A stretch of DNA of 64,000 nt, taken from IMG/VR virus record IMGVR_UViG_3300005529_000005, positions 4,499 to 68,498 of that record, one strand, 5' to 3'. Below the pieces are notes generated by a model. That model made no database searches and had not been told where the DNA came from. It was given only the letters and a program-made list of their open reading frames with translations. The stretch is from a virus. This document shows positions 33,861 to 49,541 of the stretch, in pieces. The stretch's first letter is position 1. Every line of letters begins with the position of its first letter. The translations under genes and the position numbers were made by a program.

Positions 33861-34511
33861 ATGCAGAAGGTCGCTCCGAAGCGGAACGTCCGCCAGCGGA
33901 TGAACGGCCGCGCGCTCCTTCGCGCGCTCCCCGACCGCTGCGCCGCGCTCGCGATCGTGGACCCGCAGTATCGCGCCGTCCTCGACCGTCAGGCCTACGG
34001 GAACGAGGGCGCGCGGCAGAAGGGGCGCGCGGCCCTCCCCCAGATGACCGACGCCGACGTCGCCGGGATGGTCGAGGAGGTCGAGCGCGTCCTGAGGCCG
34101 AGCGGTCACCTCGCGCTCTGGATCGACAAGTTCACCCTCGCGACCTGCCACTACCGGGCGTGGCTCGCGCGCACGGAGAGCCTCGCGGTCGTCGACCTGA
34201 TCACCTGGAACAAGCTGCGGATCGGGATGGGGCGACGCGCGCGCTGCGTCGCGGAGTTCGTGGTGATCGTCCAGAAGGACCCGATCCGCGCGAAGGGCGT
34301 CTGGGGCGACCGCGCGATCCCCGACTGCTGGCCGGAGTATCAGGACCGCTCCGTCCACCCGCACGCGAAGCCGCGCCAGCTCACGGAGCGCCTCGTGCGC
34401 GCCGTCACGCGGCGCGGGGACCTCGTCGTCGACCCCTGCGCCGGCGGCTACGGGGTCCTGGACGTCTGCCGCGACACCGGCCGAGACTTCGTGGGGTGCG
34501 ACCTCCTATGA
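33861..34511 (+). CDS. Amino-DNA methyltransferase, beta class (N4-C/N6-A), atypical motifs
   Basis: IVDPQY (motif IV), HPHAKPRQLTERLV, VVDPCAGGYG (motif I), FVGCDL. Confidence 0.8.
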   Translation: MQKVAPKRNVRQRMNGRALLRALPDRCAALAIVDPQYRAVLDRQAYGNEGARQKGRAALPQMTDADVAGMVEEVERVLRPSGHLALWIDKFTLATCHYRAWLARTESLAVVDLITWNKLRIGMGRRARCVAEFVVIVQKDPIRAKGVWGDRAIPDCWPEYQDRSVHPHAKPRQLTERLVRAVTRRGDLVVDPCAGGYGVLDVCRDTGRDFVGCDLL

Positions 34512-34717
34512 CCCGCTCTGTACTGATCGACGAAATGAAGGAAGGCTACCGGGACGGGCTCGACCCCGATTCGCCCGAGCCGTCGGCGAACCGCTCCGCG
34601 AGCTACCGTCACGGCTTCCAGGTCGGCCGCAACGACCGCGCGGGCGTCCCCGGGAAGGGCGCCGCGCGCAACCTCGTCGACGCGACCCGCGCGCTCCAGG
34701 AGGACGAGAAGCAATGA
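34508..34717 (+). CDS. Hypothetical protein
   Basis: EGYRDG...NRSASYRHGF..GRND; coupled ORF. Confidence 0.55.
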   Translation: MTRSVLIDEMKEGYRDGLDPDSPEPSANRSASYRHGFQVGRNDRAGVPGKGAARNLVDATRALQEDEKQ

Positions 34718-35541
34718 GCGATCCGCGCCCGATGCCGCTCGACACGTCCGCCTACCTCTCCGACACGGGGCACCTCTCGACGATCGAGCACGGCGCCTAT
34801 CTCCTGATCCTCATGGCGCTGTGGCGCTCACGGGACGGCTCCCTCGACGGCAGCGACCAGTATCTCGCGCGCGTGACGCGGATGACGATCGGGCGCTGGA
34901 AGCGAGTCGCGACCACGATTCGCGCGCTCCTCCTGACGAAGGACGGACGGGTCAGCCAGAAGCGTGTCAACCGCGATCGCGACCGCTTAGCCCCCGGTTC
35001 GGAATCCAACTCCGATCAAAAAAGGAGTCCGGGTGAGAATCCGAACCGCGAGGCTAAGCCGTTGAAAAATAATAGGGCGCCTCCCAAACAGGCGCCGCCG
35101 GGCGGAGTCGGCTCTTTCTCTCTTGAAGGGGAGAAGGATTCGAATCCCTCAGTTGATCGAAGAAAGACAAAGGGCCGAATCCTCCCGCCGGACTGGCGGC
35201 CGCGAGACCAGGAGCGGCTCTACGGGCGGACCGTCCTTCACCTGACCGACGGCCAGGTCGACGCGGCGGCCGAGAAGATGCGGCGGTGGGCGGTCTCGAA
35301 CCAGCACCGCGCGGTAGCCCGAAAATCAGACTGGGACATGACCTTCCGCAACTGGCTAGACTCGGAGTCGGAGCGTAGGTCGGCCCACCCCAACGCCCCG
35401 CCGCCGGGCAAGTCCGGCGGGGGAGGCTTCGCCGCAGTTTTCGAGGAGATGCGAGAGACGAACCTCGCGAGACAGGAGGACCACCATGACGACCGCGATG
35501 ACGCTGAGCCCGCCCGCCTCATCCCCGCCCGCCGCGCCTGA
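34714..35541 (+). CDS. Replication initiator, DUF1376/YdaU family
   Basis: MPLDTSAYLSDTGHLSTIEHGAYLLILMALW; C-terminal KSDWDMTFRNW. Confidence 0.85.
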   Translation: MSDPRPMPLDTSAYLSDTGHLSTIEHGAYLLILMALWRSRDGSLDGSDQYLARVTRMTIGRWKRVATTIRALLLTKDGRVSQKRVNRDRDRLAPGSESNSDQKRSPGENPNREAKPLKNNRAPPKQAPPGGVGSFSLEGEKDSNPSVDRRKTKGRILPPDWRPRDQERLYGRTVLHLTDGQVDAAAEKMRRWAVSNQHRAVARKSDWDMTFRNWLDSESERRSAHPNAPPPGKSGGGGFAAVFEEMRETNLARQEDHHDDRDDAEPARLIPARRA

Positions 35542-36364
35542 GGCCGTCGCGCGCGCGCTGACCGCGCTCACGGGGGAGCGCGATCGCGCCGGCGTCCCGA
35601 TCGCCAAGCGCGCGCTGACGGAGCCGGAGAAGGCGCTCCTGAAGCTCCGGCTGAACGACCTGCGGCCGTTCGTCGACCCCGCGAGCATCGACCGCAAGGC
35701 GCAGGAGATCACCGCGATGCTGATGGGCTTCGGCGGCCAGTCGCTCACGGCGGAACAGGCGCGGCTGACGGCGGCGCAGTACGCGCGGACGTGCGCGGAC
35801 CTCCCGCTGTGGGCGGTCTCTCGCGCGTGCCACCGGTTCGCGGCCGGGCAGGTGAAGCCGGAGGAGATCGACGAGGAGAGGATCAGCCTGACGTTCCGGC
35901 CGACGACGGCGCAGCTCTACCAGGTCGCGGCCGCGATCGCGAAGCCCGTCCTTGAGGAGCGGTTCCGGATCAGCGCGGTGCTGCGCGCGACGGTGCTCCT
36001 GCCGAGGAGGGAGCCGACCGAGGAGGAGAAGGCGGCGGTCGCGGAGAAGATACGGGACCTCACCGCGAGGCTCGGCGCGGGGAACGCGGAGAGGGACGCG
36101 GAGCGCACGGGGCGCCTGATGGTCGCGGCGCGGGAGAGCCGCCAGCAGAACGCGCGCCTGATCGAGCGGGAGTACCGCGCGGCGGGGCTCGAGCCTCCCC
36201 CGTGGGTAGGCGACATGCCGCCGGCGTCGCTCTCGTTGATGCTGAGCGTGGGCTACCGGATCGAGGAGGACGCGCGCGGGAAGAAGATGCTGGTCAGACC
36301 CGCGCCGCCCCCGCCGGCCGAGCGCAGGAAGCGCGCCGAGCTCGACGACGAGATTCCGTTCTGA
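35486..36364 (+). CDS. Replication protein (helicase-loader-like)
   Basis: Follows the initiator; ADLPLWAVSRAC...FRPTTAQL; ends DDEIPF. Confidence 0.6.
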   Translation: MTTAMTLSPPASSPPAAPEAVARALTALTGERDRAGVPIAKRALTEPEKALLKLRLNDLRPFVDPASIDRKAQEITAMLMGFGGQSLTAEQARLTAAQYARTCADLPLWAVSRACHRFAAGQVKPEEIDEERISLTFRPTTAQLYQVAAAIAKPVLEERFRISAVLRATVLLPRREPTEEEKAAVAEKIRDLTARLGAGNAERDAERTGRLMVAARESRQQNARLIEREYRAAGLEPPPWVGDMPPASLSLMLSVGYRIEEDARGKKMLVRPAPPPPAERRKRAELDDEIPF

Positions 36365-36396
36365 CCACCGAAAGTTTTGCAACAGGGAGAAGACCT

Positions 36397-37158
36397 ATGA
36401 GAGTAGCCGACCACGTCCTGAAGGTTTTGAGCGCCAGCGCCTTCGACGGCGACAAGCTCGTCCTGCCGCCCCGCCAGCTGGACCGCGACGTCTATCTAGA
36501 GGTCGCCAAGGTGATCGAGGCCGCCGGCGGCAAGTGGAATCGGAAGGCGAAGGCCCACGTCTTCGACGGCTCCGCCGAGGACGCGATCGAGCCGGTCATG
36601 CTGACGGGAGAGGTCACCAGGGTTCAGCAGGAGTTCGGGTTCTTCGAGAGCACGGCCGCCGTGGTCGCGCGGATCATGGCGCTCGCCCACCGGATCGAGC
36701 CGGGCATGCGCATCCTGGAGCCGTCGGCCGGCCGCGGCGCGATCGCGGTCCCGTTGATGAAGGCGGGGGCGGAGGTCCACACGTGGGAGATCCTGCCGAA
36801 GAACGCGGAGACGCTGCGCGCGGCGGGCCTGAGGCACGTCCACGTCGGAGACTTCCTCGCGAGCGACCCAGTCCCCGGGTTCTACCACCAGGTCTTGATG
36901 AACCCGCCGTTCGGCCGGCGCGCCGACGTCGACCACGTCCTCCACGCGGCGCGCAGTCTCAGGAGCGGCGGGACGCTGGTGTCCGTCATGTCGGCCGGCG
37001 TGACGTTTCGCCAGGACCGGAAGACGCTGTCCTTCCACGATCAGGTCAGGCGCATGTCGCTCGGCGTCCACGTCGAGCCGCTGCCGCCGCTGTCCTTCCG
37101 GGAGTCCGGGACCGACGTGAACGCCGTCCTGATCGCCTTCACGCTGGTGGCGCAGTGA
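36397..37158 (+). CDS. Class I SAM-dependent methyltransferase (gamma-type N6-adenine MTase-like)
   Basis: FFEST, ILEPSAGRGAI (motif I), MNPPF (motif IV), FRESGTDV. Confidence 0.85.
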   Translation: MRVADHVLKVLSASAFDGDKLVLPPRQLDRDVYLEVAKVIEAAGGKWNRKAKAHVFDGSAEDAIEPVMLTGEVTRVQQEFGFFESTAAVVARIMALAHRIEPGMRILEPSAGRGAIAVPLMKAGAEVHTWEILPKNAETLRAAGLRHVHVGDFLASDPVPGFYHQVLMNPPFGRRADVDHVLHAARSLRSGGTLVSVMSAGVTFRQDRKTLSFHDQVRRMSLGVHVEPLPPLSFRESGTDVNAVLIAFTLVAQ

Positions 37159-39416
37159 TCGGCGCGGCGACGATCCAGACGGAGGTCCGCCACGCGCACC
37201 TCTTCTGCGGGATCGGCGGCGGCGCCGTCGGCTTCAACCGGGGGAGCGCGCGCGTCGGGAACACGGAGGCGCGCTTCGTGTGCGTCGGCGGGATCGACTC
37301 GGACCCGGCGGCGTGCCGGGACTTCGAGCGCAAGGCGCGCGCGCCGGCGACGTGCCGGGACCTCTTCTCGCTCGACCAGTACCGGGACTTCCACGGGCGC
37401 GACCCGGCGCCCGGGTGGGAGGAGGCGGGACCCGACGCGCTCCACCGCGCGTTCAGGCTGCGGCCGCACATCGTGTTCCTGAGCGCGCCGTGCAAGGGCT
37501 TCTCCGGCCTGCTGTCCGAGACCTCCTCCAAGACCGCGCGCTATCAGGCCTTGAACGGCCTGACGCTGCGCGGCGTGTGGCTCCTGCTGGAGGCCTACAA
37601 GGACGACCCGGTCGAGCTGCTCGTCTTCGAGAACGTCCCGAGGATCGCGACGCGCGGGCGCTGGCTGCTCGACCAGATCGTCGCGCTGCTGCGCGCCTAC
37701 GGCTACGCGGTCGCGGAGACGACGCACGACTGCGGGGAGCTGGGCGAGCTCGGCCAGAGCCGGAAGCGGTTCCTGCTCGTCGCGCGCCACCAGGAGAAGG
37801 TCCCGCCGTTCCTCTATGAGCCTCCGAAGCATCGGCTGCTCGGCGTGGGCGACGTGCTCGAGCGTCTCCCGATGCCGCTGACGGGTGAGGGCGGAGCGAT
37901 GCACCGGATGCCCGCGCTCCAGTGGAAGACGTGGGTCCGTCTGGCCTTCGTGCGCGCCGGCGCCGACTGGCGCTCGCTGAACGACCTCGCGGTCGAGGGC
38001 GGGTTCCTGAAGGACTTCGGGATCGTCCCGGCCGGCCCGTGGCGAAGTGACGTGCTCGGCGTCATGAACTGGACCGACACGGCGGGGACAGTCACGTCCC
38101 GCTCGGGCCCGACGAACGGCCGCTTCGCGGTCGCGGACCCGCGCGCGGGGGAGCTGGCTAGCAAGGACCGTCAGGCCTACGGCGTGGGCGCGTGGGAAGA
38201 CCCGGCCGCGACGGTGACCTCCGCGCGCTCGCCCGGTCAGGGGCGCTTCTCCGTGGCGGACCCGCGCTTCGCGCAGGAGCGGCGCAAGGCCGCCTTCGGC
38301 GTGAGGGGATGGGAGGAGCCCGCCGGCGTCGTCCAGGGCGAGAGCCTGCCGAGCAACGGCTCCTTCGCCGTCGCTGATCCCCGGCCGCCTGAGCCCATCC
38401 GTGGGGGAAAATATCGGGTGACCAGGATGGACGAGCCCGCCGGGACGGTGATCGCGTCCTCGACCACCGGGAACGGCGCCTTCGCGGTCTCCGACCCCCG
38501 GGTGGACGGCCACCCCCGGAGCGTCCAGCTCGGCGTGCGGGAGTGGAGCGAGCCGTCCGGGGTCGTCACGGGTCAGATGGCGGCCGGTCAGGGTCCGAAC
38601 TCCGTCGCGGACCCGCGACTCGGCGGGAAGCGGTTCAACACGACCTACAGGATCGTGCGATGGGACGAGACCGCGCCGGCGGTCGCCGGCCCGGGCGGAC
38701 CAGGCGGGGGGCTGGCGGTCGCCGACCCGCGCGCGACGCACGGTCCCAACGCTCACCACAACAAGATGCGGGTCGAGCCGTGGACGGACCCGTGTCACGC
38801 CGTCACCGGGACCGACCGCGTCGGGAGCGGCGCGCTGTGCGTCGCCGACCCGCGCTGGAGGGACGGCCGCGACGCCTACCTCTCCGCCGGGCACTACGGC
38901 GTGGTCCCCTGGACGCGGCCGTCGCGCGCCGTCTTCGGCCACGGTCAGCACGACAACGGCTTCAACTCCGTCGCTGACCCGCGACCGGATGGGAAAAACT
39001 CGTCCACCGACGAGTCGTGCGGGATCAACGGCTTGGGAGCCGAGTGGACGAGTCCGCGGGAAGAACCCGAGAAGTCGTCCATCCTCCTGCCCGCCCCCGA
39101 CGAGCGCCTCGTGTGCGTCATCTTCGCCCGCGACGGGACGTGGCACCGGCCCTTCACCACGCTGGAGCTGGCGGCTCTGCAGGGCCTCGTCGACCCGGAG
39201 GAGCAGTTCGAGCTCGACGGCCTCTCCGACGCGGCGTGGCGGGAGCGAATCGGCAACTGCGTCCCGCCGCCCTCGGCGACGGCGATCGCGAGCGTGATGG
39301 GAGAGACGCTCCTCCTCGCGTGGGCGGGGGAGACGTTCAAGCTGAGCGCCGCGCCGATCTGGGTCAGGGACGTCGCGGTCGGGCTCTCCGTGCGGCCGCA
39401 GGAGATCGACCAATGA
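37155..39416 (+). CDS. C5-cytosine DNA methyltransferase with eight internal ~29-aa repeats
   Basis: HLFCGIGGGAVG (I), SAPCKGFS (IV), FENVPRI (VI), QSRKRFLL (VIII), RIGNCVPP (X); VADPR repeats in the TRD. Confidence 0.9.
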   Translation: MIGAATIQTEVRHAHLFCGIGGGAVGFNRGSARVGNTEARFVCVGGIDSDPAACRDFERKARAPATCRDLFSLDQYRDFHGRDPAPGWEEAGPDALHRAFRLRPHIVFLSAPCKGFSGLLSETSSKTARYQALNGLTLRGVWLLLEAYKDDPVELLVFENVPRIATRGRWLLDQIVALLRAYGYAVAETTHDCGELGELGQSRKRFLLVARHQEKVPPFLYEPPKHRLLGVGDVLERLPMPLTGEGGAMHRMPALQWKTWVRLAFVRAGADWRSLNDLAVEGGFLKDFGIVPAGPWRSDVLGVMNWTDTAGTVTSRSGPTNGRFAVADPRAGELASKDRQAYGVGAWEDPAATVTSARSPGQGRFSVADPRFAQERRKAAFGVRGWEEPAGVVQGESLPSNGSFAVADPRPPEPIRGGKYRVTRMDEPAGTVIASSTTGNGAFAVSDPRVDGHPRSVQLGVREWSEPSGVVTGQMAAGQGPNSVADPRLGGKRFNTTYRIVRWDETAPAVAGPGGPGGGLAVADPRATHGPNAHHNKMRVEPWTDPCHAVTGTDRVGSGALCVADPRWRDGRDAYLSAGHYGVVPWTRPSRAVFGHGQHDNGFNSVADPRPDGKNSSTDESCGINGLGAEWTSPREEPEKSSILLPAPDERLVCVIFARDGTWHRPFTTLELAALQGLVDPEEQFELDGLSDAAWRERIGNCVPPPSATAIASVMGETLLLAWAGETFKLSAAPIWVRDVAVGLSVRPQEIDQ

Positions 39417-39619
39417 GCAGACGCTATGCCGTGGTTTTTCCCGACGGCTCGATGTCCGTGATGGCTGAGCCCAAGACCGGTCACGAAGCCGCCTCCTATC
39501 GCGGAATGGCGAAGGAGGAGCGTGACGGCTGGAATGAACGGGAGCGTAAATCGAAGTCGAAGAGCTTCGCCAAGCTGGCGACGGTTGAGGTCTCCGACGT
39601 GAAGGAGCTAAGACGATGA
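39413..39619 (+). CDS. Hypothetical protein
   Basis: Coupled small ORF. Confidence 0.5.
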   Translation: MSRRYAVVFPDGSMSVMAEPKTGHEAASYRGMAKEERDGWNERERKSKSKSFAKLATVEVSDVKELRR

Positions 39620-40431
39620 CTCGCGAGACCGCCCCGAGGTTCTCGGGGATCGGCGGCCACCACAGCCACAAGGCGGGGACCGTCGAGTGGATCACCCCGC
39701 CGGACGTCATAGCGGCGCTCGGGCCCTTCGACCTCGACCCGTGCTCCTCGCTAGCCCAGCCGTGGCCGACCGCGGCGCGCGCCTTCACCCGGACCGACAA
39801 CGGCCTGACGCGCGCGTGGGAGGGGCGGGTCTGGCTGAACCCTCCCTACGCGAACGGCGTGATCGAGAAGTGGCTCGCGCGCATGGCGGAGCACGACCGA
39901 GGGACGGCGCTGATCTTCGCGCGGACGGAGACCGACGCCTTCTTCAGGTTCGTGTGGGAGCGCGCGACGGCGCTCCTCTTCATGCGCGGCCGGATCAACT
40001 TCCACTTCGGGGAGCCGTGGCTCGACCAGAAAACCGGTGTCCACTATCAGGTCGGCGATCGCGCCCCCGGGAACGCCGGCGCGCCGACCGTGCTGTGCGC
40101 CTACGGGGTCGACGACGCGGACGTGCTGGCGGCCTGCCGGATCGACGGCCGCTTCGTCCCGCTCCGCCTCCCGCGCTCAGTGGTCGTGTCGATTTTCTCG
40201 ACCTCAAACGAGGAGGCAAAAAGTGTCGTCACCTGGCGGGAGGCCCTCGCCGGCTTCTTCGCCGAGCGCGAGGGGCCGGTCGTCCTCGAGGACCTCTACC
40301 GCGCCTTCGCGACGCACCCGAAGGCGGCGACGAACCGGAACGTCCAGGCGAAGCTGCGCCAGCAGCTCCAGGAGGGACCCTACCGCCGGGTCGGTCCTGG
40401 TCTTTGGGAGGCGGCTGAACAGGGAGCGTGA
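39616..40431 (+). CDS. Phage Dam-like N6-adenine methyltransferase
   Basis: EWITPP...FDLDPC...DNGLTRAWEGRVWLNPPY...ARTET. Confidence 0.9.
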   Translation: MTRETAPRFSGIGGHHSHKAGTVEWITPPDVIAALGPFDLDPCSSLAQPWPTAARAFTRTDNGLTRAWEGRVWLNPPYANGVIEKWLARMAEHDRGTALIFARTETDAFFRFVWERATALLFMRGRINFHFGEPWLDQKTGVHYQVGDRAPGNAGAPTVLCAYGVDDADVLAACRIDGRFVPLRLPRSVVVSIFSTSNEEAKSVVTWREALAGFFAEREGPVVLEDLYRAFATHPKAATNRNVQAKLRQQLQEGPYRRVGPGLWEAAEQGA

Positions 40432-40831
40432 CCATGGCATGCGACGCAGCGATCCGGCACGTCAGGCGGGTGCTGGACGAGAGGTTCCTGAGCATGAACG
40501 CCAGCGACGTCTACGCCGAGGTCAGGTGGTGGACCCCGGACACGATCGTCGAGGCGCTCGACTCGCTCGTCGCCGCGCGGGCCGCGATCAAGGTCGAGGA
40601 CCGCTACCACGTCCTGGGACCGCTCCGGTGAGCGCGGCGCGGGGCGACGAGGTCGTCTACCTCTCCCTGACGGGGGAGACGTGGGACGCCGTGGTCGCGG
40701 CGGTCGGTCCCGAGGACCGCGTCACCCTCCTCGTCGGGAGCTTCGAGCTCGAACTGAGCCGCGTTCCCCTTGACGACACCCGCACTCTTCCTGGATCGTG
40801 GTCCCCGCTCGGACAGGGAGAGGGCGATTGA
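40428..40831 (+). other. Two small hypothetical ORFs (40428..40631; 40628..40831)
   Basis: GTGA-type coupled overlaps. Confidence 0.45.
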
Positions 40832-41430
40832 CCAAGAGACCCAAGCCGGCCGCGGCCGTCGACTTCGACGGGAGGGACGTACCCGCGATGCGGCCCGTCA
40901 TGACGCCGCTGACGAAGATCGTCCCGTACCCGCTCAACCCGCGCACGCACCCGCCCGCTCAGGTCGCGCTCCTCGCCGGCATGATGACGAAGCACGGCGT
41001 CGACCAGCCGATCGTCATGCGCGAGGAGGACGGGTTCATCCTGAAGGGTCACGGGCGGCGCCTCGCGGCGATCGCGGCCGCGATGGACGCCTTCCCGGTG
41101 ATCTGGCGCGCCGGCCTCTCGGAGGAAGAGGCGCGCGCGATGCGCATCGAGGACAACCAGGTCGCGCTGCTCGCCGGTTGGGACCGAGAGTTGATCCACC
41201 AGGAGGTCGTCAGCCTGAAGACGGCGGGCTACGACGTGTCGACGCTCGGCTTCGGCGACGCGCAGCTGGTCCAGTTCACCACGACGCCGGGACCGCCCGC
41301 TCAGTTCCCCGCCTTCGGGGAGAACATCCCCACCGACTTCTGCTGCCCGAAGTGCGGCTACAAGTGGTCGGGGAAGCCGACGCCCGAGTCGGACGGCGAC
41401 CGCGCGGCTCCCAAGCGGAAGAAGGCGTGA
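40828..41430 (+). CDS. ParB/Srx N-terminal domain protein with C-terminal Zn ribbon
   Basis: PYPLNPRTH...VDQPIV...ILKGHGRRLAA...MRIEDNQ; CPKCGYKW. Confidence 0.85.
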   Translation: MTKRPKPAAAVDFDGRDVPAMRPVMTPLTKIVPYPLNPRTHPPAQVALLAGMMTKHGVDQPIVMREEDGFILKGHGRRLAAIAAAMDAFPVIWRAGLSEEEARAMRIEDNQVALLAGWDRELIHQEVVSLKTAGYDVSTLGFGDAQLVQFTTTPGPPAQFPAFGENIPTDFCCPKCGYKWSGKPTPESDGDRAAPKRKKA

Positions 41431-41431
41431 T

Positions 41432-43099
41432 GTGGCTCTCCTCCTGCGGATCAAGGATCCCCAGTTCTTCCGCAAGCGGAGCACCGGGCAACCGGTGCGC
41501 ACCATCGACCTCGACGCGGAGCCGTGTCCGACGATCATGGCGAACGGGATCAGGAGCGTCACCGTCGGGCGCTACGAGCTGGTCGACGACGGGAGGCCCC
41601 CGGTGATCGACGCGACGAAGCCTCCCTACCGCGTCCCGTCCATGGCGGAGATCGCGGCGGTCGAGCCGAACGGGCTGAAGGTGATCTCCACGTTCGCGGG
41701 ATGCGGCGGCTCCTCGCTCGGCTACCGGATGGCGGGCTTCAAGGTCCTATGGGCGTCGGAGTTCGTCGAGCGCGCGCGGCTCGACTACGAGGCGAACGCC
41801 GCTCAGGGGACGGTCGTCGACGGCCGCGACATCCGCCAGGTCGACCCCCTGGAGGTCCTGAGGACGGTCGGCCTTCAGCCGGGCGAGCTCGACGTGCTCG
41901 ATGGCTCCCCGCCGTGCGCGTCCTTCTCGACCTCCGGCAAGCGCGACAAGAAGTGGGGAACGGTCAGCAAGTACAGCGACCGGGAGCAGCGCACCGACGA
42001 CCTCTTCTTCGAGTTCGTTCGGTTCGCGAAGGCGATGCGGCCTCGCGTGTTCGTGGCGGAGAACGTCTCCGGGCTCGTGAAGGGCGTCGCGAAGGGCTAC
42101 TTCCTGGAGATCCTGGCCGCGATGAAGAAGGTCGGCTACCGCGTGGAGGCGCGCCTCCTCGACGCTCAGTGGCTCGGCGTCCCGCAGCAGCGGCAGCGGA
42201 TCATCTTCGTCGGCGTGCGCAGGGACCTCGGCCTCGAGCCCGCCTACCCGTCGCCGCTGCCCTACCGATATAGCGTACGCGACGCTCTGCCCTGGATCAG
42301 CCGCGCGATCCACGACACGTCGGGAGACCGAAGCGTCGGGGAAATCACGAACCGGCCGGCGCCGACGATCACGGTGGGCGGCCTGCAGCCCAACGCCTGC
42401 CACTTCAAGGTCGTCGAGGCGACGGTCTTCCAGAGCGACAAGTACACCCACCTGAAGGACGTGACCGACACGCCCGCGCTGACGATCCGGGCGACGCCCG
42501 GCGAGGGGAAGAAGAAGCCCTTCGTGGTCGAGCGCGTCGTCCAGGGTCCGGAGGTCGACCAGCGCAACGAGGGTCGCGACCTGAGCGACGGCCCCGCGCC
42601 GACGGTCGTCGCCGGCGACGCTGAGAAGCGCACGCCGCGCCAGTTCGTGGTCGAGCAGTTCGTCGTGGAGCCCGAGACCGACATCAGCGGCCAGGCGATC
42701 GGCAAGGAGTACGACCGCCTGAACCCGGGGCAGGAGTCGGACAAGTACTTCAACCTGAAGCGCGCGCCGATCAGCGAGCCGTGCCAGACGGTGACCGCCT
42801 CGGGCGGGATGAACTCCGGGATCGCGAGCGTGACGCACCCGACGGAGAAGCGGAAGTTCTCGATCGCCGAGCTGCGCCGCGTATGCGGCTTCCCGGACGA
42901 CTTCGCGCTCGGCGGGACCTACGCGCAGCAGTGGGAGCGGATGGGGCGCGCGGTCCCGCCGGTGATGATGGCCGCGATCGCGCGCAGCGTCGCCGGCGTG
43001 CTGAAGGAGGCGAAGAATGTGCGGCCTGCTCGGAGCGTTCGATCTCCCCCGGTTCGACGTCGCCGCGCGGCTCGACCTGATAGCGCATCGCGGGCCTGA
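41432..43099 (+). CDS. C5-cytosine DNA methyltransferase homolog with Arg in motif X; predicted carboxymethyltransferase
   Basis: STFAGCGGSSLG (I), DGSPPCASFS (IV), AENVSGL (VI), QQRQRIIFVG (VIII), ERMGRAVPP (X; GNAV replaced by GRAV). Confidence 0.88.
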   Translation: MALLLRIKDPQFFRKRSTGQPVRTIDLDAEPCPTIMANGIRSVTVGRYELVDDGRPPVIDATKPPYRVPSMAEIAAVEPNGLKVISTFAGCGGSSLGYRMAGFKVLWASEFVERARLDYEANAAQGTVVDGRDIRQVDPLEVLRTVGLQPGELDVLDGSPPCASFSTSGKRDKKWGTVSKYSDREQRTDDLFFEFVRFAKAMRPRVFVAENVSGLVKGVAKGYFLEILAAMKKVGYRVEARLLDAQWLGVPQQRQRIIFVGVRRDLGLEPAYPSPLPYRYSVRDALPWISRAIHDTSGDRSVGEITNRPAPTITVGGLQPNACHFKVVEATVFQSDKYTHLKDVTDTPALTIRATPGEGKKKPFVVERVVQGPEVDQRNEGRDLSDGPAPTVVAGDAEKRTPRQFVVEQFVVEPETDISGQAIGKEYDRLNPGQESDKYFNLKRAPISEPCQTVTASGGMNSGIASVTHPTEKRKFSIAELRRVCGFPDDFALGGTYAQQWERMGRAVPPVMMAAIARSVAGVLKEAKNVRPARSVRSPPVRRRRAARPDSASRA

Positions 43100-44390
43100 C
43101 GGCTCCGGGGTCGCGTCGTCCGGGCCTGCGGTCCACGGCCACGTCCGCCTCGCCCTCCTCGACCTGAGCGAGGCCGGCGCGCAGCCGTTCAGGCGAGGCG
43201 AGGGCCTCCTCTCCTTCAACGGTGAGATTTGGAACTGGCGCGCCGTCCGGGAGGAGCTGGAGCGCGCGGACGAGGTCTTCCGCACGTCGTGCGACACGGA
43301 GGTCCTCGCGGCCGCGCTCGACCGTTGGGGCGTCGGGGAGACGCTCCCGCGCCTCGAGGGCATGTTCGCCTTCGCGTGGTCGAAGGGGCGGACGCACGTC
43401 CTCGCGCGCGACCGCTTCGGGAAGATCCCGCTCCACGTCTCCCGCTTCGCGCGGTCCTTCGTCTGGTCGAGCGAGATGAAGGGGCTCGGGCCCGAGCACC
43501 CGTCGGCGCCGCTCCCGCCCGGGACGATCCTCGATCTGACCACCGGGGAACTGGAGACCTGGTACGCGCTCCCGCGGCGCCACGCGGTCGAGTCCCCCGC
43601 GGCGATCGCGGCTGACCTCCGCGCCGGCGTGGCGGCCCGGATCGTCTCCGACGCGCCGCTGTGCTGCCTGATCTCCGGCGGGCTCGACTCGTCGCTGATC
43701 CTGACGGAGGCGCGCCGGCTGAAGCCAGACGTCGTCGCCTTCACCGCCCGCCACGACGACCGCTCCGCCGACCTGAGGGCCGCGCGGCGCCTCTGCGCCG
43801 AGCTCGACGTGAGCCTGGTCGAGGTCCCCGTGGGCGCGCCGACGGCGGACACGCTCGCGGCGGCCGTCCGCGCGATCGAACTGCCGAGCAAGGCCCAGGT
43901 GGAGATCGCGGCGCTGTGCGTGCCGCTCGCTCGCGCGATCGCCGCGGAGGGCTTCAAGGCCTGCCTCTCCGGGGAGGCGGCGGACGAACTCTTCGGCGGC
44001 TACGGCTCGATGTGCATCAAGGGGGCGCGCGCGGACGACGAGGCGTGGCGCGCGATCCGCGTCGCTCAGATCGAGAAGATGGCGCGCGGAAACTTCGTGC
44101 GGTGCAACAAGGCGTTCATGGCGGCGGGCGTCGAGTGCCGCCTCCCGTTCATGGAGCGACGGCTCGTGGAGCGCGTGATCAACCTGAGGAAGGTCGACTG
44201 CCCGCCCGGGAAGAAGGCGCTGAAGGAGGCCGCGCGCGGTCTCGTCCCGCGGTGGGTGATCTCCCGCACCAAGCAGACGTTCCAGGGAGGCGCGGGGATG
44301 GACGAGGCGGCGGCGCGGGCGGTGGCGAACCCGAAGGTCTTCTACGGGGCAGAGTTCCGGTCAGCCTTCGGCGCGGCCGTCGCGGCGTAG
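43017..44390 (+). CDS. Asparagine synthetase B-like glutamine amidotransferase/amide ligase
   Basis: AGGAGG RBS; MCG Ntn nucleophile, HRGPDG, GHVRLALLD, NGEIWN, RDRFGKIPL, SGGLDSS PP-loop, SGEAADELFGGY, ECRLPF. Confidence 0.93.
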   Translation: MCGLLGAFDLPRFDVAARLDLIAHRGPDGSGVASSGPAVHGHVRLALLDLSEAGAQPFRRGEGLLSFNGEIWNWRAVREELERADEVFRTSCDTEVLAAALDRWGVGETLPRLEGMFAFAWSKGRTHVLARDRFGKIPLHVSRFARSFVWSSEMKGLGPEHPSAPLPPGTILDLTTGELETWYALPRRHAVESPAAIAADLRAGVAARIVSDAPLCCLISGGLDSSLILTEARRLKPDVVAFTARHDDRSADLRAARRLCAELDVSLVEVPVGAPTADTLAAAVRAIELPSKAQVEIAALCVPLARAIAAEGFKACLSGEAADELFGGYGSMCIKGARADDEAWRAIRVAQIEKMARGNFVRCNKAFMAAGVECRLPFMERRLVERVINLRKVDCPPGKKALKEAARGLVPRWVISRTKQTFQGGAGMDEAAARAVANPKVFYGAEFRSAFGAAVAA

Positions 44391-44815
44391 AACGCGGTCC
44401 AGAAGCGCCGCGCCTCGTCGACGTGGGGGACGTTCCACCAGCGGTTCAGGCCGGACGGGTGAGGCGCCACGGTGACCTCGCCGCAGTCCCGGGAGAGCCG
44501 GGTCCACTCGAAATAGCCGACGGGTGAGACGCGGAAGGCGCGCGCGACGTTCCAACCGAGCAGTACGACGTGGTCGCGCGCGGCGACGACCTCCGCCATC
44601 GCGTCGGCCCGCGCGCGGGCCTCCTCGACGGGGAAGGCGTCTCCGGCGCCCGCCTTCCCGGGGAACGTGGCGAAGACGTTCGCCCGGTCGAAGGCGGTCA
44701 GGAAGGCGCGGAGGTCGAGGCCGCAGAGGGCGGCGAGCCGCCCCCCGCAGCGTCCGGCCAGCGGCGTAGGGTTGCCGCTCGGGCCGGGCGCTTGACCTAT
44801 GATCAGCGGCTTCAC
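44342..44815 (-). CDS. Uracil-DNA glycosylase superfamily protein
   Basis: LIIGQAPG (motif A), VVLLG..VARAF, PHPSGLNRWWN (motif B). Confidence 0.8.
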   Translation of the reverse strand: MKPLIIGQAPGPSGNPTPLAGRCGGRLAALCGLDLRAFLTAFDRANVFATFPGKAGAGDAFPVEEARARADAMAEVVAARDHVVLLGWNVARAFRVSPVGYFEWTRLSRDCGEVTVAPHPSGLNRWWNVPHVDEARRFWTAFYAATAAPKADRNSAP

Positions 44816-45096
44816 GACTGAAGCCAGAAGGCGAGGGCGGGAGAAGGCAACTCCCCGACGAGGACGATCTCGTCCGAGGTCCACTCCTCGCCGTCGGCGT
44901 CGACGTAAAGCTCCTTCCCGGCGCGATCCTTGGTCCGCTGGCTATCCCAACAGACCTCCGTCTCCCCGACGAAGTCGCAGTCGAGCGACCCGTCGGGGAG
45001 CCGGGAGAAGGACTCCTCGCGCACGAGGGCGTTCGCCTCTACCACGTCGGCGGTCGCGACGATGATCACGCCTGTCGGGCTGAAGGCCTTTGCCAT
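44812..45096 (-). CDS. Acidic hypothetical protein
   Basis: Coupled ORF MAKAFSPTG... Confidence 0.55.
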   Translation of the reverse strand: MAKAFSPTGVIIVATADVVEANALVREESFSRLPDGSLDCDFVGETEVCWDSQRTKDRAGKELYVDADGEEWTSDEIVLVGELPSPALAFWLQS

Positions 45097-48820: not shown

Positions 48821-48850
48821 TTGAAGGGTGCGGGGAGCCAGATGTACAGT
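48821..48850 (+). promoter_or_regulatory. Putative sigma70 promoter for the CmoA-like gene
   Basis: TTGAAG-N18-TACAGT in the divergent intergenic region, upstream of AGGAGG/GTG at 48876. Confidence 0.4.
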
Positions 48851-48875
48851 GCGGTTTGACCCCCAGGAGGATCAG

Positions 48876-49541
48876 GTGGCTAGGAAGAAGCTCGACGTAC
48901 CCCGTGAGTGGAGCTGGTCGGCGGCGGTCGCCAAGCACTTCGATTCGCACGTTCGGGAGAGCCTCCCGTGGTACGACCTCGCCACCGGCGCCGTCGCCCA
49001 CATCGCGCGCGCCTACGTCCCCCGGGAGGGCGTAGTGATCGACGTCGGCGCCTCCACGGGCAACGTCGGGCGCGCGCTCGCGCCGGTCCTGAAGGCGAGG
49101 TCAGCGACGCTCCGCGCGATCGACTCGTCGGTGGAGATGCGCGACGTCTATCGCGGTCCGGGCGTGCTCGAGGTCGTGGACGCGGAGGAGTTCGACTTCG
49201 CCGGCGCCGCTCCCGACCTGATCGTGTGCTTCCTCGCGCTGATGTTCGTCCCGGTCTCGACGCGGAGGCTCCTGGTCGAGCGCATGAAGGAGGCGCTGCG
49301 CCCGGGCGGCGCGATCATCGTCTTCGACAAGATGGTGCCGAGGCCGGGCTACGTCGGGACCGTCGCCTACCGGCTGACGCTCGCCGCGAAGATGGACGCC
49401 GGCGCCTCCCCCGCCGAGGTCGTGGCGAAGGAGTTGTCGATCGCCGGCGTCCAGCGTCCCATGTCAGAGGGCGAGCTCGGCGGCTTCGTCGAGGTCTTCC
49501 GCTTCGGGGACTTCGCGGGGTTCGTGCACGAGCGCGACTGA
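48876..49541 (+). CDS. CmoA-like SAM-dependent enzyme (carboxy-SAM synthase homolog)
   Basis: WSWSAAVAKHFDSHVRESLPWY, VIDVGASTG, AIDSSVEM, FLALMFV, LRPGGAIIVFDK follow the CmoA pattern ([22 protein letters not shown]...LNPGGALVLSEK, recalled from memory). Confidence 0.8.
   Translation: MARKKLDVPREWSWSAAVAKHFDSHVRESLPWYDLATGAVAHIARAYVPREGVVIDVGASTGNVGRALAPVLKARSATLRAIDSSVEMRDVYRGPGVLEVVDAEEFDFAGAAPDLIVCFLALMFVPVSTRRLLVERMKEALRPGGAIIVFDKMVPRPGYVGTVAYRLTLAAKMDAGASPAEVVAKELSIAGVQRPMSEGELGGFVEVFRFGDFAGFVHERD

Follow-up and report, generated by a model that had tools for sequence, protein, structure and literature searches.

A probable CmoX-type DNA cytosine carboxymethyltransferase with a predicted amide-forming partner in a complete viral genome

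We analyzed a 64,000-nucleotide stretch of viral DNA (hereafter the window), bases 4499–68498 of IMG/VR record IMGVR_UViG_3300005529_000005, which is a complete 74,093-bp virus genome with direct terminal repeats; the G+C content of the window is ~69%. The analysis centers on a plus-strand gene encoding a protein, P0001, with the motifs of a DNA cytosine-C5 methyltransferase (C5-MTase) and an arginine in motif X. Judged from its sequence, P0001 is most likely a CmoX-type enzyme that carboxymethylates cytosines in DNA. The wider explanation of the locus, in which CmoX carboxymethylation would be followed by amidation by the ligase encoded next to it, we regard as likely. The transferase gene and its motifs are as follows.

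41432..43099, plus strand: probable CmoX-type DNA cytosine-C5 carboxymethyltransferase, 555 residues (P0001), assigned from PF00145 and from structure 8YF3 by sequence and fold.
Residues 88–97 of P0001: motif I, FAGCGGSSLG.
41903..41929, plus strand: motif IV, GSPPCASFS; GSPPC spans residues 158–162, Cys162 being the catalytic nucleophile, and Ala163 stands in place of Gln.
Residues 210–212 of P0001: motif VI, ENV.
Residues 252–256 of P0001: motif VIII, QQRQR.
42941..42958, plus strand: motif X, M-G-R506-A-V-P (ATG GGG CGC GCG GTC CCG), in the context WERMGRAVPP.

The frame 41432–43099 is open, with a third-position GC of 0.93, and the Pfam family PF00145 (DNA_methylase) covers P0001 from end to end (E = 1.3e-51, profile positions 1–322 of 324). 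Beyond the family core, the protein has an N-terminal extension of ~60 to 80 residues and an enlarged variable region at approximately residues 268–434. An earlier reading of this DNA, made without database searches (the sequence-only reading), had singled out an arginine at residue 506 in ERMGRAVPP and described motifs I, IV, VI, and VIII as intact. Both observations hold: frame and translation place the CGC codon of Arg506 at 42947–42949, in the plus-strand frame of the gene, and all four motifs were located in P0001 and are invariant across an alignment of 78 sequences (alignment A3). In the same alignment, the motif X arginine is at least 90% conserved, the exceptions being six sequences with asparagine at this position that were added deliberately; Arg506 is therefore not a chance variant. 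Of the 120 nearest homologues in the database, 113 have GR(A/S)VP and seven have GNSVP (referred to below as Arg-type and Asn-type enzymes, respectively). The other C5-MTase of the window (open reading frame (ORF) 36534–39416) has the canonical motif X, WRERIGNCVPPP (RIGNCVPP), as had also been noted.

The top match of P0001 among sequences in the PDB is 8YF3 (E = 1.9e-65), followed at a distance by M.HaeIII (E = 3.4e-22), and the HMMER alignments set ERMGRAVPP of P0001 against ERVGRMVPP in 8YF3 and MIGNAVP in M.HaeIII. An AlphaFold model of P0001, calculated with 78 homologues (mean predicted local distance difference test score (pLDDT) 74.8; above 90 in the core), likewise gave 8YF3 as its top Foldseek match (E = 8.7e-26, template modeling score 0.82 by target length). 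This entry is the 1.9 Å crystal structure of SpCmoX from Synechococcus phage S-B43 (Yang et al., Nat Commun 2025, PMC12783734). In S-B43, carboxy-S-adenosylmethionine (Cx-SAM) is made by a phage CmoA, and the chemistry of SpCmoA and SpCmoX, as well as their action on DNA, has been demonstrated; wild-type SpCmoX uses Cx-SAM as its sole cofactor and does not use S-adenosylmethionine (SAM), and the R350N mutant uses neither (PMC12783734). Arg350 of SpCmoX stands in for Asn304 of M.HhaI and touches the carboxymethyl group of Cx-SAM directly (PMC12783734). Sequence alignments, including a multiple alignment (A2) in which P0001 and SpCmoX are 41% identical, place Arg506 at the position of SpCmoX Arg350, M.HhaI Asn304, and M.MpeI Asn374. 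The pairing of the arginine with the Cx-SAM carboxylate, proposed by the sequence-only reading, gains support from the Arg350 contact in 8YF3, to whose GRMVPP the GRAVPP of P0001 is aligned. The precedent cited in that reading, the use of carboxy-SAM by M.MpeI N374K, is also correct: Yang et al. draw the parallel between SpCmoX and this engineered enzyme, which accepts Cx-SAM, in their discussion (PMC12783734).

P0001 combines several features expected of the CmoX family, namely a C5-MTase fold with an SPPC motif, arginine at the Arg350 position, closer similarity to SpCmoX than to any characterized methyltransferase, and a phage CmoA homologue in the same genome. Yang et al. collected 5615 CmoX candidates from IMG/VR v4, UniProtKB, and MGnify by the criterion of SPPC plus arginine, many of which adjoin CmoA, ligases, and ParBc proteins (PMC12783734); since the window comes from an IMG/VR genome, its record may be among them. 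The arginine switch was already established in December 2025, by crystallography and assays on another phage (S-B43), and the idea is no longer new; a reading from sequence alone had reached what crystallography and enzyme assays established there. A megablast search of 50,697 phage records for near-identical DNA to 40798–44390 gave no match.

To relate the motif X residue to its genomic context, 80 IMG/VR loci with relatives of the transferase were surveyed together with the window, their ORFs being searched with profiles of four window proteins (the transferase, a ParB-like protein, a ligase, and CmoA). CmoA is present in 77 of 80 Arg-type loci (window counted), mostly directly downstream of the transferase; of the three Arg-type loci without it, at least one is truncated where its contig stops, while the remaining ones reach only a few kilobases past the transferase. 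CmoA is also adjacent in all five cultured Arg-type phages (S-B43, S-CRM01, TurkishDelight, PaBG, and Mcat8). As for ligases, 28 loci have a full-length gene and nine a short one without the glutaminase domain, the rest having none in range. In comparison, neither CmoA nor a ligase occurs in the contexts of the four GNSVP homologues examined, all of which have ParB, and the same holds for a GNAVPP locus (L041) with a ParB partner; Aphanizomenon phage CL131, of the PCQ/GN type, has no CmoA. Altogether, six Asn-type relatives (P0076, P0020, P0072, P0101, L041, and CL131) lack both CmoA and the ligase, with ParB found wherever upstream DNA is available. When pooled, CmoA accompanies 82 of 85 Arg-type enzymes vs none of six Asn-type enzymes (Fisher p ~1e-7, a value that ignores relatedness). 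These counts, and the frequent presence of AsnB-like ligases beside the Arg-type enzymes, bear out the co-occurrence of GR(A/S)V transferases with CmoA and AsnB that the sequence-only reading had proposed to survey. The Asn types sit on one side of a single tree branch and form essentially one clade, and the linkage, although real, reflects few evolutionary events.

Several GNSVP-type loci share the convergent downstream genes of the window, and three states are found at the syntenic position: asparagine without CmoA or ligase (L083–L088), arginine with a distal CmoA (L102), and arginine accompanied by a ligase and also by a distal CmoA, as in the window. The intermediate state is that of the nearest relative (L102, the contig with P0005), whose syntenic, Arg-type CmoX is 66% identical to P0001 and has no ligase. 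No such three-state series was encountered in the main text by Yang et al. (PMC12783734). These naturally occurring enzymes of the two types, set in one genomic frame, are ready-made controls.

Arg506 is not the only change in the predicted cofactor pocket. Ala163 of P0001 (PCA) replaces the near-universal glutamine of the PCQ motif, Gln82 in M.HhaI; SpCmoX has PCS at the same place. All Arg-type proteins in alignment A2 have alanine or serine after the catalytic cysteine, and their Asn-type relatives have PCQ. The residue after the catalytic cysteine was tabulated in two further sets.

The 120 closest homologues plus viral loci: Arg-type, A, S, or L and no Gln; Asn-type, Gln except in L041 (Val).
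The 150 cluster representatives at 50% identity: Arg-type, 57 of 58 without Gln; Asn-type, Gln in 37 of 47.

In PaBG and an Erwinia jumbo phage, lysine follows the catalytic cysteine. Gln82 (motif IV) and Asn304 (motif X) of M.HhaI both line the pocket for the transferable group; their replacement widens the pocket for larger groups, and the Q82A exchange lowers methylation by ~16-fold (Lukinavicius et al., PMC3526304). The same two positions are changed in the engineered enzymes M.MpeI N374K and M.HhaI Q82A/Y254S/N304A (PMC3526304), and M.MpeI N374K resembles P0001 further in that a basic residue at the asparagine position confers use of Cx-SAM. Unlike these variants, the changes in the window are natural and introduce arginine rather than lysine, and the CmoX family appears to be exclusive for Cx-SAM; the R350N exchange leaves SpCmoX without activity on either cofactor and does not turn it back into a methyltransferase (PMC12783734). 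A search of the main text of Yang et al. gave no mention of the motif IV glutamine or of PCQ (PMC12783734). The structures and the M.HhaI engineering literature suggest that the cofactor switch involves loss of this glutamine in addition to the Asn-to-Arg exchange, which is relevant to the engineering of carboxymethyltransferases for sequencing and DNA labeling. An independent-contrast test of the glutamine/asparagine covariation yielded two to three Arg/Asn contrasts among 106 representatives (sign test p 0.5); with so few contrasts, and with the Asn types on one side of one branch, the covariation is inseparable from shared ancestry.

The sequence-only reading had called the arginine a one-residue diagnostic of a carboxymethyltransferase. 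Within the clade the arginine does mark such enzymes, but the phrase is too strong, as the motif IV glutamine is lost too and CmoA is found beside a transferase without the arginine in an SPbeta-like phage; the arginine is an excellent positive marker within the CmoX clade and is not necessary for CmoA linkage generally. In this Staphylococcus phage SPbeta-like genome (L103:4989-6688), cmoA immediately precedes a C5-MTase that retains PCQ, has neither an Arg-type nor an Asn-type motif X, and reads ...V-V-G-G-V-I-N-Q... at its C terminus; this transferase is CmoA-linked without the CmoX arginine. Gordonia phage Evaa (L104:1-3952) has, beside the terminase, a ParB-like gene, a non-C5 methyltransferase with a ParB N-terminal domain, and a CmoA-like gene; its ParB-fused methyltransferase may be a different carboxymethylating enzyme.

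The genes that accompany the transferase in the window are given below.

40798..41430, plus strand: ParB_N-like protein; weak Pfam ParB_N match (E = 0.001); ends one base before CmoX.
43017..44390, plus strand: AsnB-like glutamine-dependent amidoligase, 457 residues (P0003); Pfam Asn_synthase (E = 6.5e-40) and GATase_6/7.
48828..49541, plus strand: CmoA-like carboxy-SAM synthase, 237 residues (P0004), of the class I methyltransferases; the true start is possibly a few codons further downstream.

Of the 81 related loci including the window, 74 have a ParB homologue directly upstream of the transferase, and an association of CmoX with ParBc proteins is also reported by Yang et al. (PMC12783734). 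The ParB-like gene was rejected as a carboxymethylation-specific component, since Asn-type loci carry ParB too.

The ligase gene overlaps the 3′ end of CmoX, which encodes a basic C-terminal tail, by 83 nucleotides and has its own AGGAGG ribosome-binding site. The best PDB match of P0003 is Escherichia coli AsnB (1CT9, E = 1.3e-39), with which it aligns at Cys2, Arg44, N68-G69-E70, Asp93, the SGGLDSS PP-loop (residues 220–226), and an SGE motif. Against the NCBIfam AsnB equivalogs, its scores fall below the cut-offs (253 vs 267 bits for TIGR01536 and 222 vs 499 bits for NF006949), so that, by sequence, P0003 shares the asparagine synthetase fold and chemistry but is not classed as an asparagine synthetase. 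Compared with E. coli AsnB, with which it has in common the N-terminal cysteine glutaminase and PP-loop ATP pyrophosphatase domains, P0003 is ~100 residues shorter at the C terminus (AsnB has about 550 residues), lies in a DNA-modification operon, and has as its presumed acyl substrate a DNA base rather than aspartate. Its resemblance to SpCmoY (271 residues), the asparagine-synthetase-like ligase of S-B43, is confined to the surroundings of the PP-loop (E = 6e-4). With this limited similarity and a full N-terminal glutaminase domain, where CmoY has just the PP-loop domain with glycine-binding residues, P0003 is not a CmoY and belongs to the glutamine-hydrolyzing ligase cluster of Yang et al., who suggest glutamine-derived ammonia as the amine for that cluster (PMC12783734). 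An apparent CmoX–ligase fusion in one related locus (L067, an 861-residue frame) was rejected as an in-frame read-through in which the ligase retains its own Met-Cys start; as a fusion it would be non-functional because an N-terminal-nucleophile glutaminase requires a free N-terminal cysteine.

P0004 is the sole CmoA-like gene of the genome. Its best PDB match is E. coli CmoA (4GEK, E = 1.7e-11), and a profile of 32 phage homologues of P0004 matches E. coli CmoA (4GEK, E = 1.7e-49) and Haemophilus influenzae YecO (E = 2.6e-47) over the full length; the identity of P0004 to SpCmoA, whose activity has been shown by experiment, is 23%. Between the ligase and CmoA lies a leftward operon of ~4.4 kb that includes a uracil-DNA glycosylase (UDG)-like gene, a zinc-finger protein, and a DUF932 protein. 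The UDG-like gene (44342–44884, minus strand) was considered as a member of the module and rejected, as the same convergent gene turns up in a relative of the Asn type and in the one without a ligase.

In the pathway that we propose, CmoA would convert SAM and host prephenate into Cx-SAM. CmoX would then flip a cytosine out of the double-stranded phage DNA, Cys162 would attack C6, and the C5 carbanion would take the carboxymethyl group from Cx-SAM to form 5-carboxymethylcytosine (5cxmC), with Arg506 predicted to hold the carboxylate and Ala163 to make room. The carboxylate of 5cxmC would next be adenylated by the ligase, whose Cys2 glutaminase domain would release from glutamine the ammonia that completes the amide. 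The product would be the hypermodified base 5-carbamoylmethylcytosine (nucleoside [M+H]+ 285.12), which should, in its presumed role, block host restriction enzymes. By homology, it is highly probable that the CmoA and CmoX of the window behave like the assayed enzymes of S-B43. The amide is a reasonably probable end product. The fuller proposition, in which the phage DNA carries 5-carbamoylmethylcytosine and the cofactor change was a two-position remodeling of the pocket (from PCQ to PCA in motif IV and from GN to GR in motif X) whose stages are kept in syntenic relatives, we rate as evenly balanced. No report of 5-carbamoylmethylcytosine as a DNA base was found in the literature searched; Yang et al. 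merely predict such a product for this ligase cluster (PMC12783734). With this locus, the amidotransferase branch of the CmoX pathway, whose product has never been observed, is represented in a complete genome.

Several observations weigh against this explanation. The glutamine-hydrolyzing ligase cluster yielded no soluble enzyme for Yang et al. (PMC12783734). The CmoA gene lies 4.4 kb downstream of CmoX and the ligase, outside their operon, and although the best NCBIfam matches of P0004 are both CmoA equivalogs, its scores are well under their cut-offs (46 bits vs 193 for TIGR00740 and 45 vs 285 for NF011995). In the profile alignment, Glu202 of P0004 (K-E-L-S) falls opposite Arg199 of E. coli CmoA, the residue that presumably binds the Cx-SAM carboxylate; a conserved arginine (G-V-Q-R-P) follows eight residues past Glu202. 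This mismatch is no argument against P0004 activity because the active SpCmoA aligns K-E there too, and a glutamate opposite Arg199 is a trait of the whole phage CmoA family, not a defect. One Arg-type relative (P0267), with an AsnB-like gene next to it, combines the arginine with PCQ, so that loss of the glutamine is not obligatory. The Arg/Asn state changes only ~3 times among the 106 cluster representatives on the tree, which means that both the linkage and the glutamine covariation rest on few independent events. Finally, an insert of ~100 residues in the variable region of P0001 (residues 300–410) is modeled at a pLDDT of only 30 to 50.

The uncertainty is greatest at the amidation step. 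CmoX might make 5cxmC while the ligase forms no primary amide on DNA, using instead another amine or another substrate (a nucleotide, a protein, or a metabolite), or employing its glutaminase for another purpose. Besides the lack of soluble enzyme from this cluster, related CmoX loci have at least two other ligase types, one of which, SpCmoY, attaches glycine, and the absence of the ligase from the closest relative (L102) suggests a dispensable add-on. Set against this, the ligase gene and CmoX overlap and are close at the level of translation, the glutamine-site residues of the ligase are conserved, the ligase occurs in none of the Asn-type loci, and its 28 full-length homologues directly after CmoX genes have all (28/28) retained the Met-Cys start and the PP-loop. 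On balance, we consider a ligase without amide formation on DNA improbable and retain 5-carbamoylmethylcytosine as the expected product.

It is far less probable that P0001 is an ordinary SAM-dependent 5-methylcytosine methyltransferase in which the arginine is neutral, the CmoA-like gene then being an unrelated small-molecule or tRNA methyltransferase. Such an enzyme would share the C5-MTase fold and the full set of catalytic motifs, and the sub-threshold scores and non-adjacent position of the CmoA homologue would fit this view. However, wild-type SpCmoX does not use SAM (PMC12783734), the arginine is strongly conserved and tracks CmoA across the pooled loci, the PCQ glutamine that is important for methyl transfer is gone, and the profile of the phage CmoA proteins reaches E. 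coli CmoA at E = 1.7e-49. A reversed order of steps, in which the ligase would amidate free Cx-SAM to carbamoylmethyl-SAM and the transferase would move the finished carbamoylmethyl group to DNA, is equally doubtful. No sequence feature sets the order of the steps, but an arginine facing the transferable group suits a carboxylate more than a neutral amide, and SpCmoY works on 5cxmC already within DNA (PMC12783734). Moreover, approximately half of the related loci, as well as L102, combine the Arg-type enzyme with CmoA alone, so that the enzyme must work on Cx-SAM itself. That the gene is an inactive remnant, or is disabled by its long variable insert, is hardly credible: the poorly modeled insert and the 83-nucleotide 3′ overlap with the next gene might be read in that way, but the frame is open with a third-position GC of 0.93 and intact motifs, homologues with comparable inserts and a basic tail at the C terminus are frequent, and the genome is that of a complete phage with terminal repeats.

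Taking carboxymethylation by CmoX followed by amidation as the favored explanation, we compared the locus with known systems. The CmoA–CmoX–CmoY system of S-B43 is alike in the C5-MTase fold, SPPC, the motif X arginine, the loss of the motif IV glutamine (PCS in S-B43, PCA in the window), a phage CmoA as supplier of Cx-SAM (a predicted role in the window), and a ligase of the asparagine synthetase family. It differs in the size of the transferase (372 residues in SpCmoX vs 555 in the window, where the N-terminal extension is present and the variable region is ~100 residues longer), in the ligase (the 271-residue CmoY, which attaches glycine to 5cxmC already in DNA (PMC12783734), vs a glutamine-amidotransferase type), and in gene order (CmoA–CmoY–CmoX with no adjacent ParB vs ParB–CmoX–ligase with a distal CmoA). 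The target motif of SpCmoX in S-B43 is GC. The bacterial CmoA/CmoB pathway to cmo5U34 in tRNA uses a donor-making enzyme of the same family (E. coli CmoA, 4GEK); unlike it, the phage module has no CmoB, and its acceptor is C5 of DNA cytosine, served by an enzyme of the C5-MTase fold.

The closest cultured relative is Streptomyces phage TurkishDelight, whose genes 122–125 (MW291017) comprise the same set in the same order, ParB, an Arg-type CmoX (PCA, GRAVPP), an amidotransferase-type ligase, and CmoA. The CmoX proteins are 49.7% identical (tblastn, over 84% of the query) and the ligase (gp124) is 41% identical; the annotations of the four genes read only ParB-like, methyltransferase, glutamine amidotransferase domain, and methyltransferase. 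TurkishDelight differs in having CmoA adjacent (4.4 kb away in the window), in a shorter transferase of 423 residues, and in its actinobacterial host. No experimental characterization of this module was found in the literature searched; as TurkishDelight is in culture and has the gene set of the window, the amide product could be sought there directly.

Other relatives of the transferase display further pocket types. A third type combines PCS with G-M-S-V-P-P (Met) and is found in Bacillus phage BMBtp14 (L096), Flavobacterium phage FpV9 (L097), and a Bacteroides LoVEphage (L098), with no CmoA within 6 kb in any of the three. Cluster representatives with 45 to 55% identity to P0001 show other pairs, PCE with G-D-A-V-P-P or PCD with G-(L/M/Q)-S-V-P-P (P0208, P0219, P0228, and P0251 (L099, L100), as well as P0215, P0225, and P0252). 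These PCE/PCD representatives have ParB upstream and no partner gene visible on their short contigs, and, from the motifs, their pocket pairs may mark further cofactor variants. Erwinia phage pEa_SNUABM_17 encodes a 709-residue Arg-type CmoX (gp49, L095:4642-6771; WERLGRVCVP) with an intein-like insert exactly at the catalytic cysteine of motif IV (GSPP, C-F-T-E... to ...V-V-H-N, C-K-G-F-S); a CmoA homologue lies ~20 kb from CmoX in the same jumbo genome, and 26 Erwinia phage records match both queries.

Within the window, four to five DNA-modifying transferases occur in 10 kb (33861–40431), including an N6_N4 methyltransferase (33861–34511), a repeat-bearing C5-MTase, a Dam-family methyltransferase (39616–40431), and CmoX. 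The repeat-bearing enzyme is the second C5-MTase (36534–39416), which has PCK in motif IV and GNCVPP in motif X, and whose variable region holds ~9 tandem repeats, each ending in S/A-V-A-D-P-R; the first ~200 codons of this ORF look non-coding and Arg-rich, and the protein probably starts around residue 215. In P0001 itself, a [D/E/N]-x-P-[A/C]-x-T-[I/V] module occurs five times, at residues 31, 311, 348, 388, and 450. One of these P-x-x-T-[IV] modules lies in the N-terminal extension and three extra copies in the variable region, and among homologues the copy number grows with protein length.

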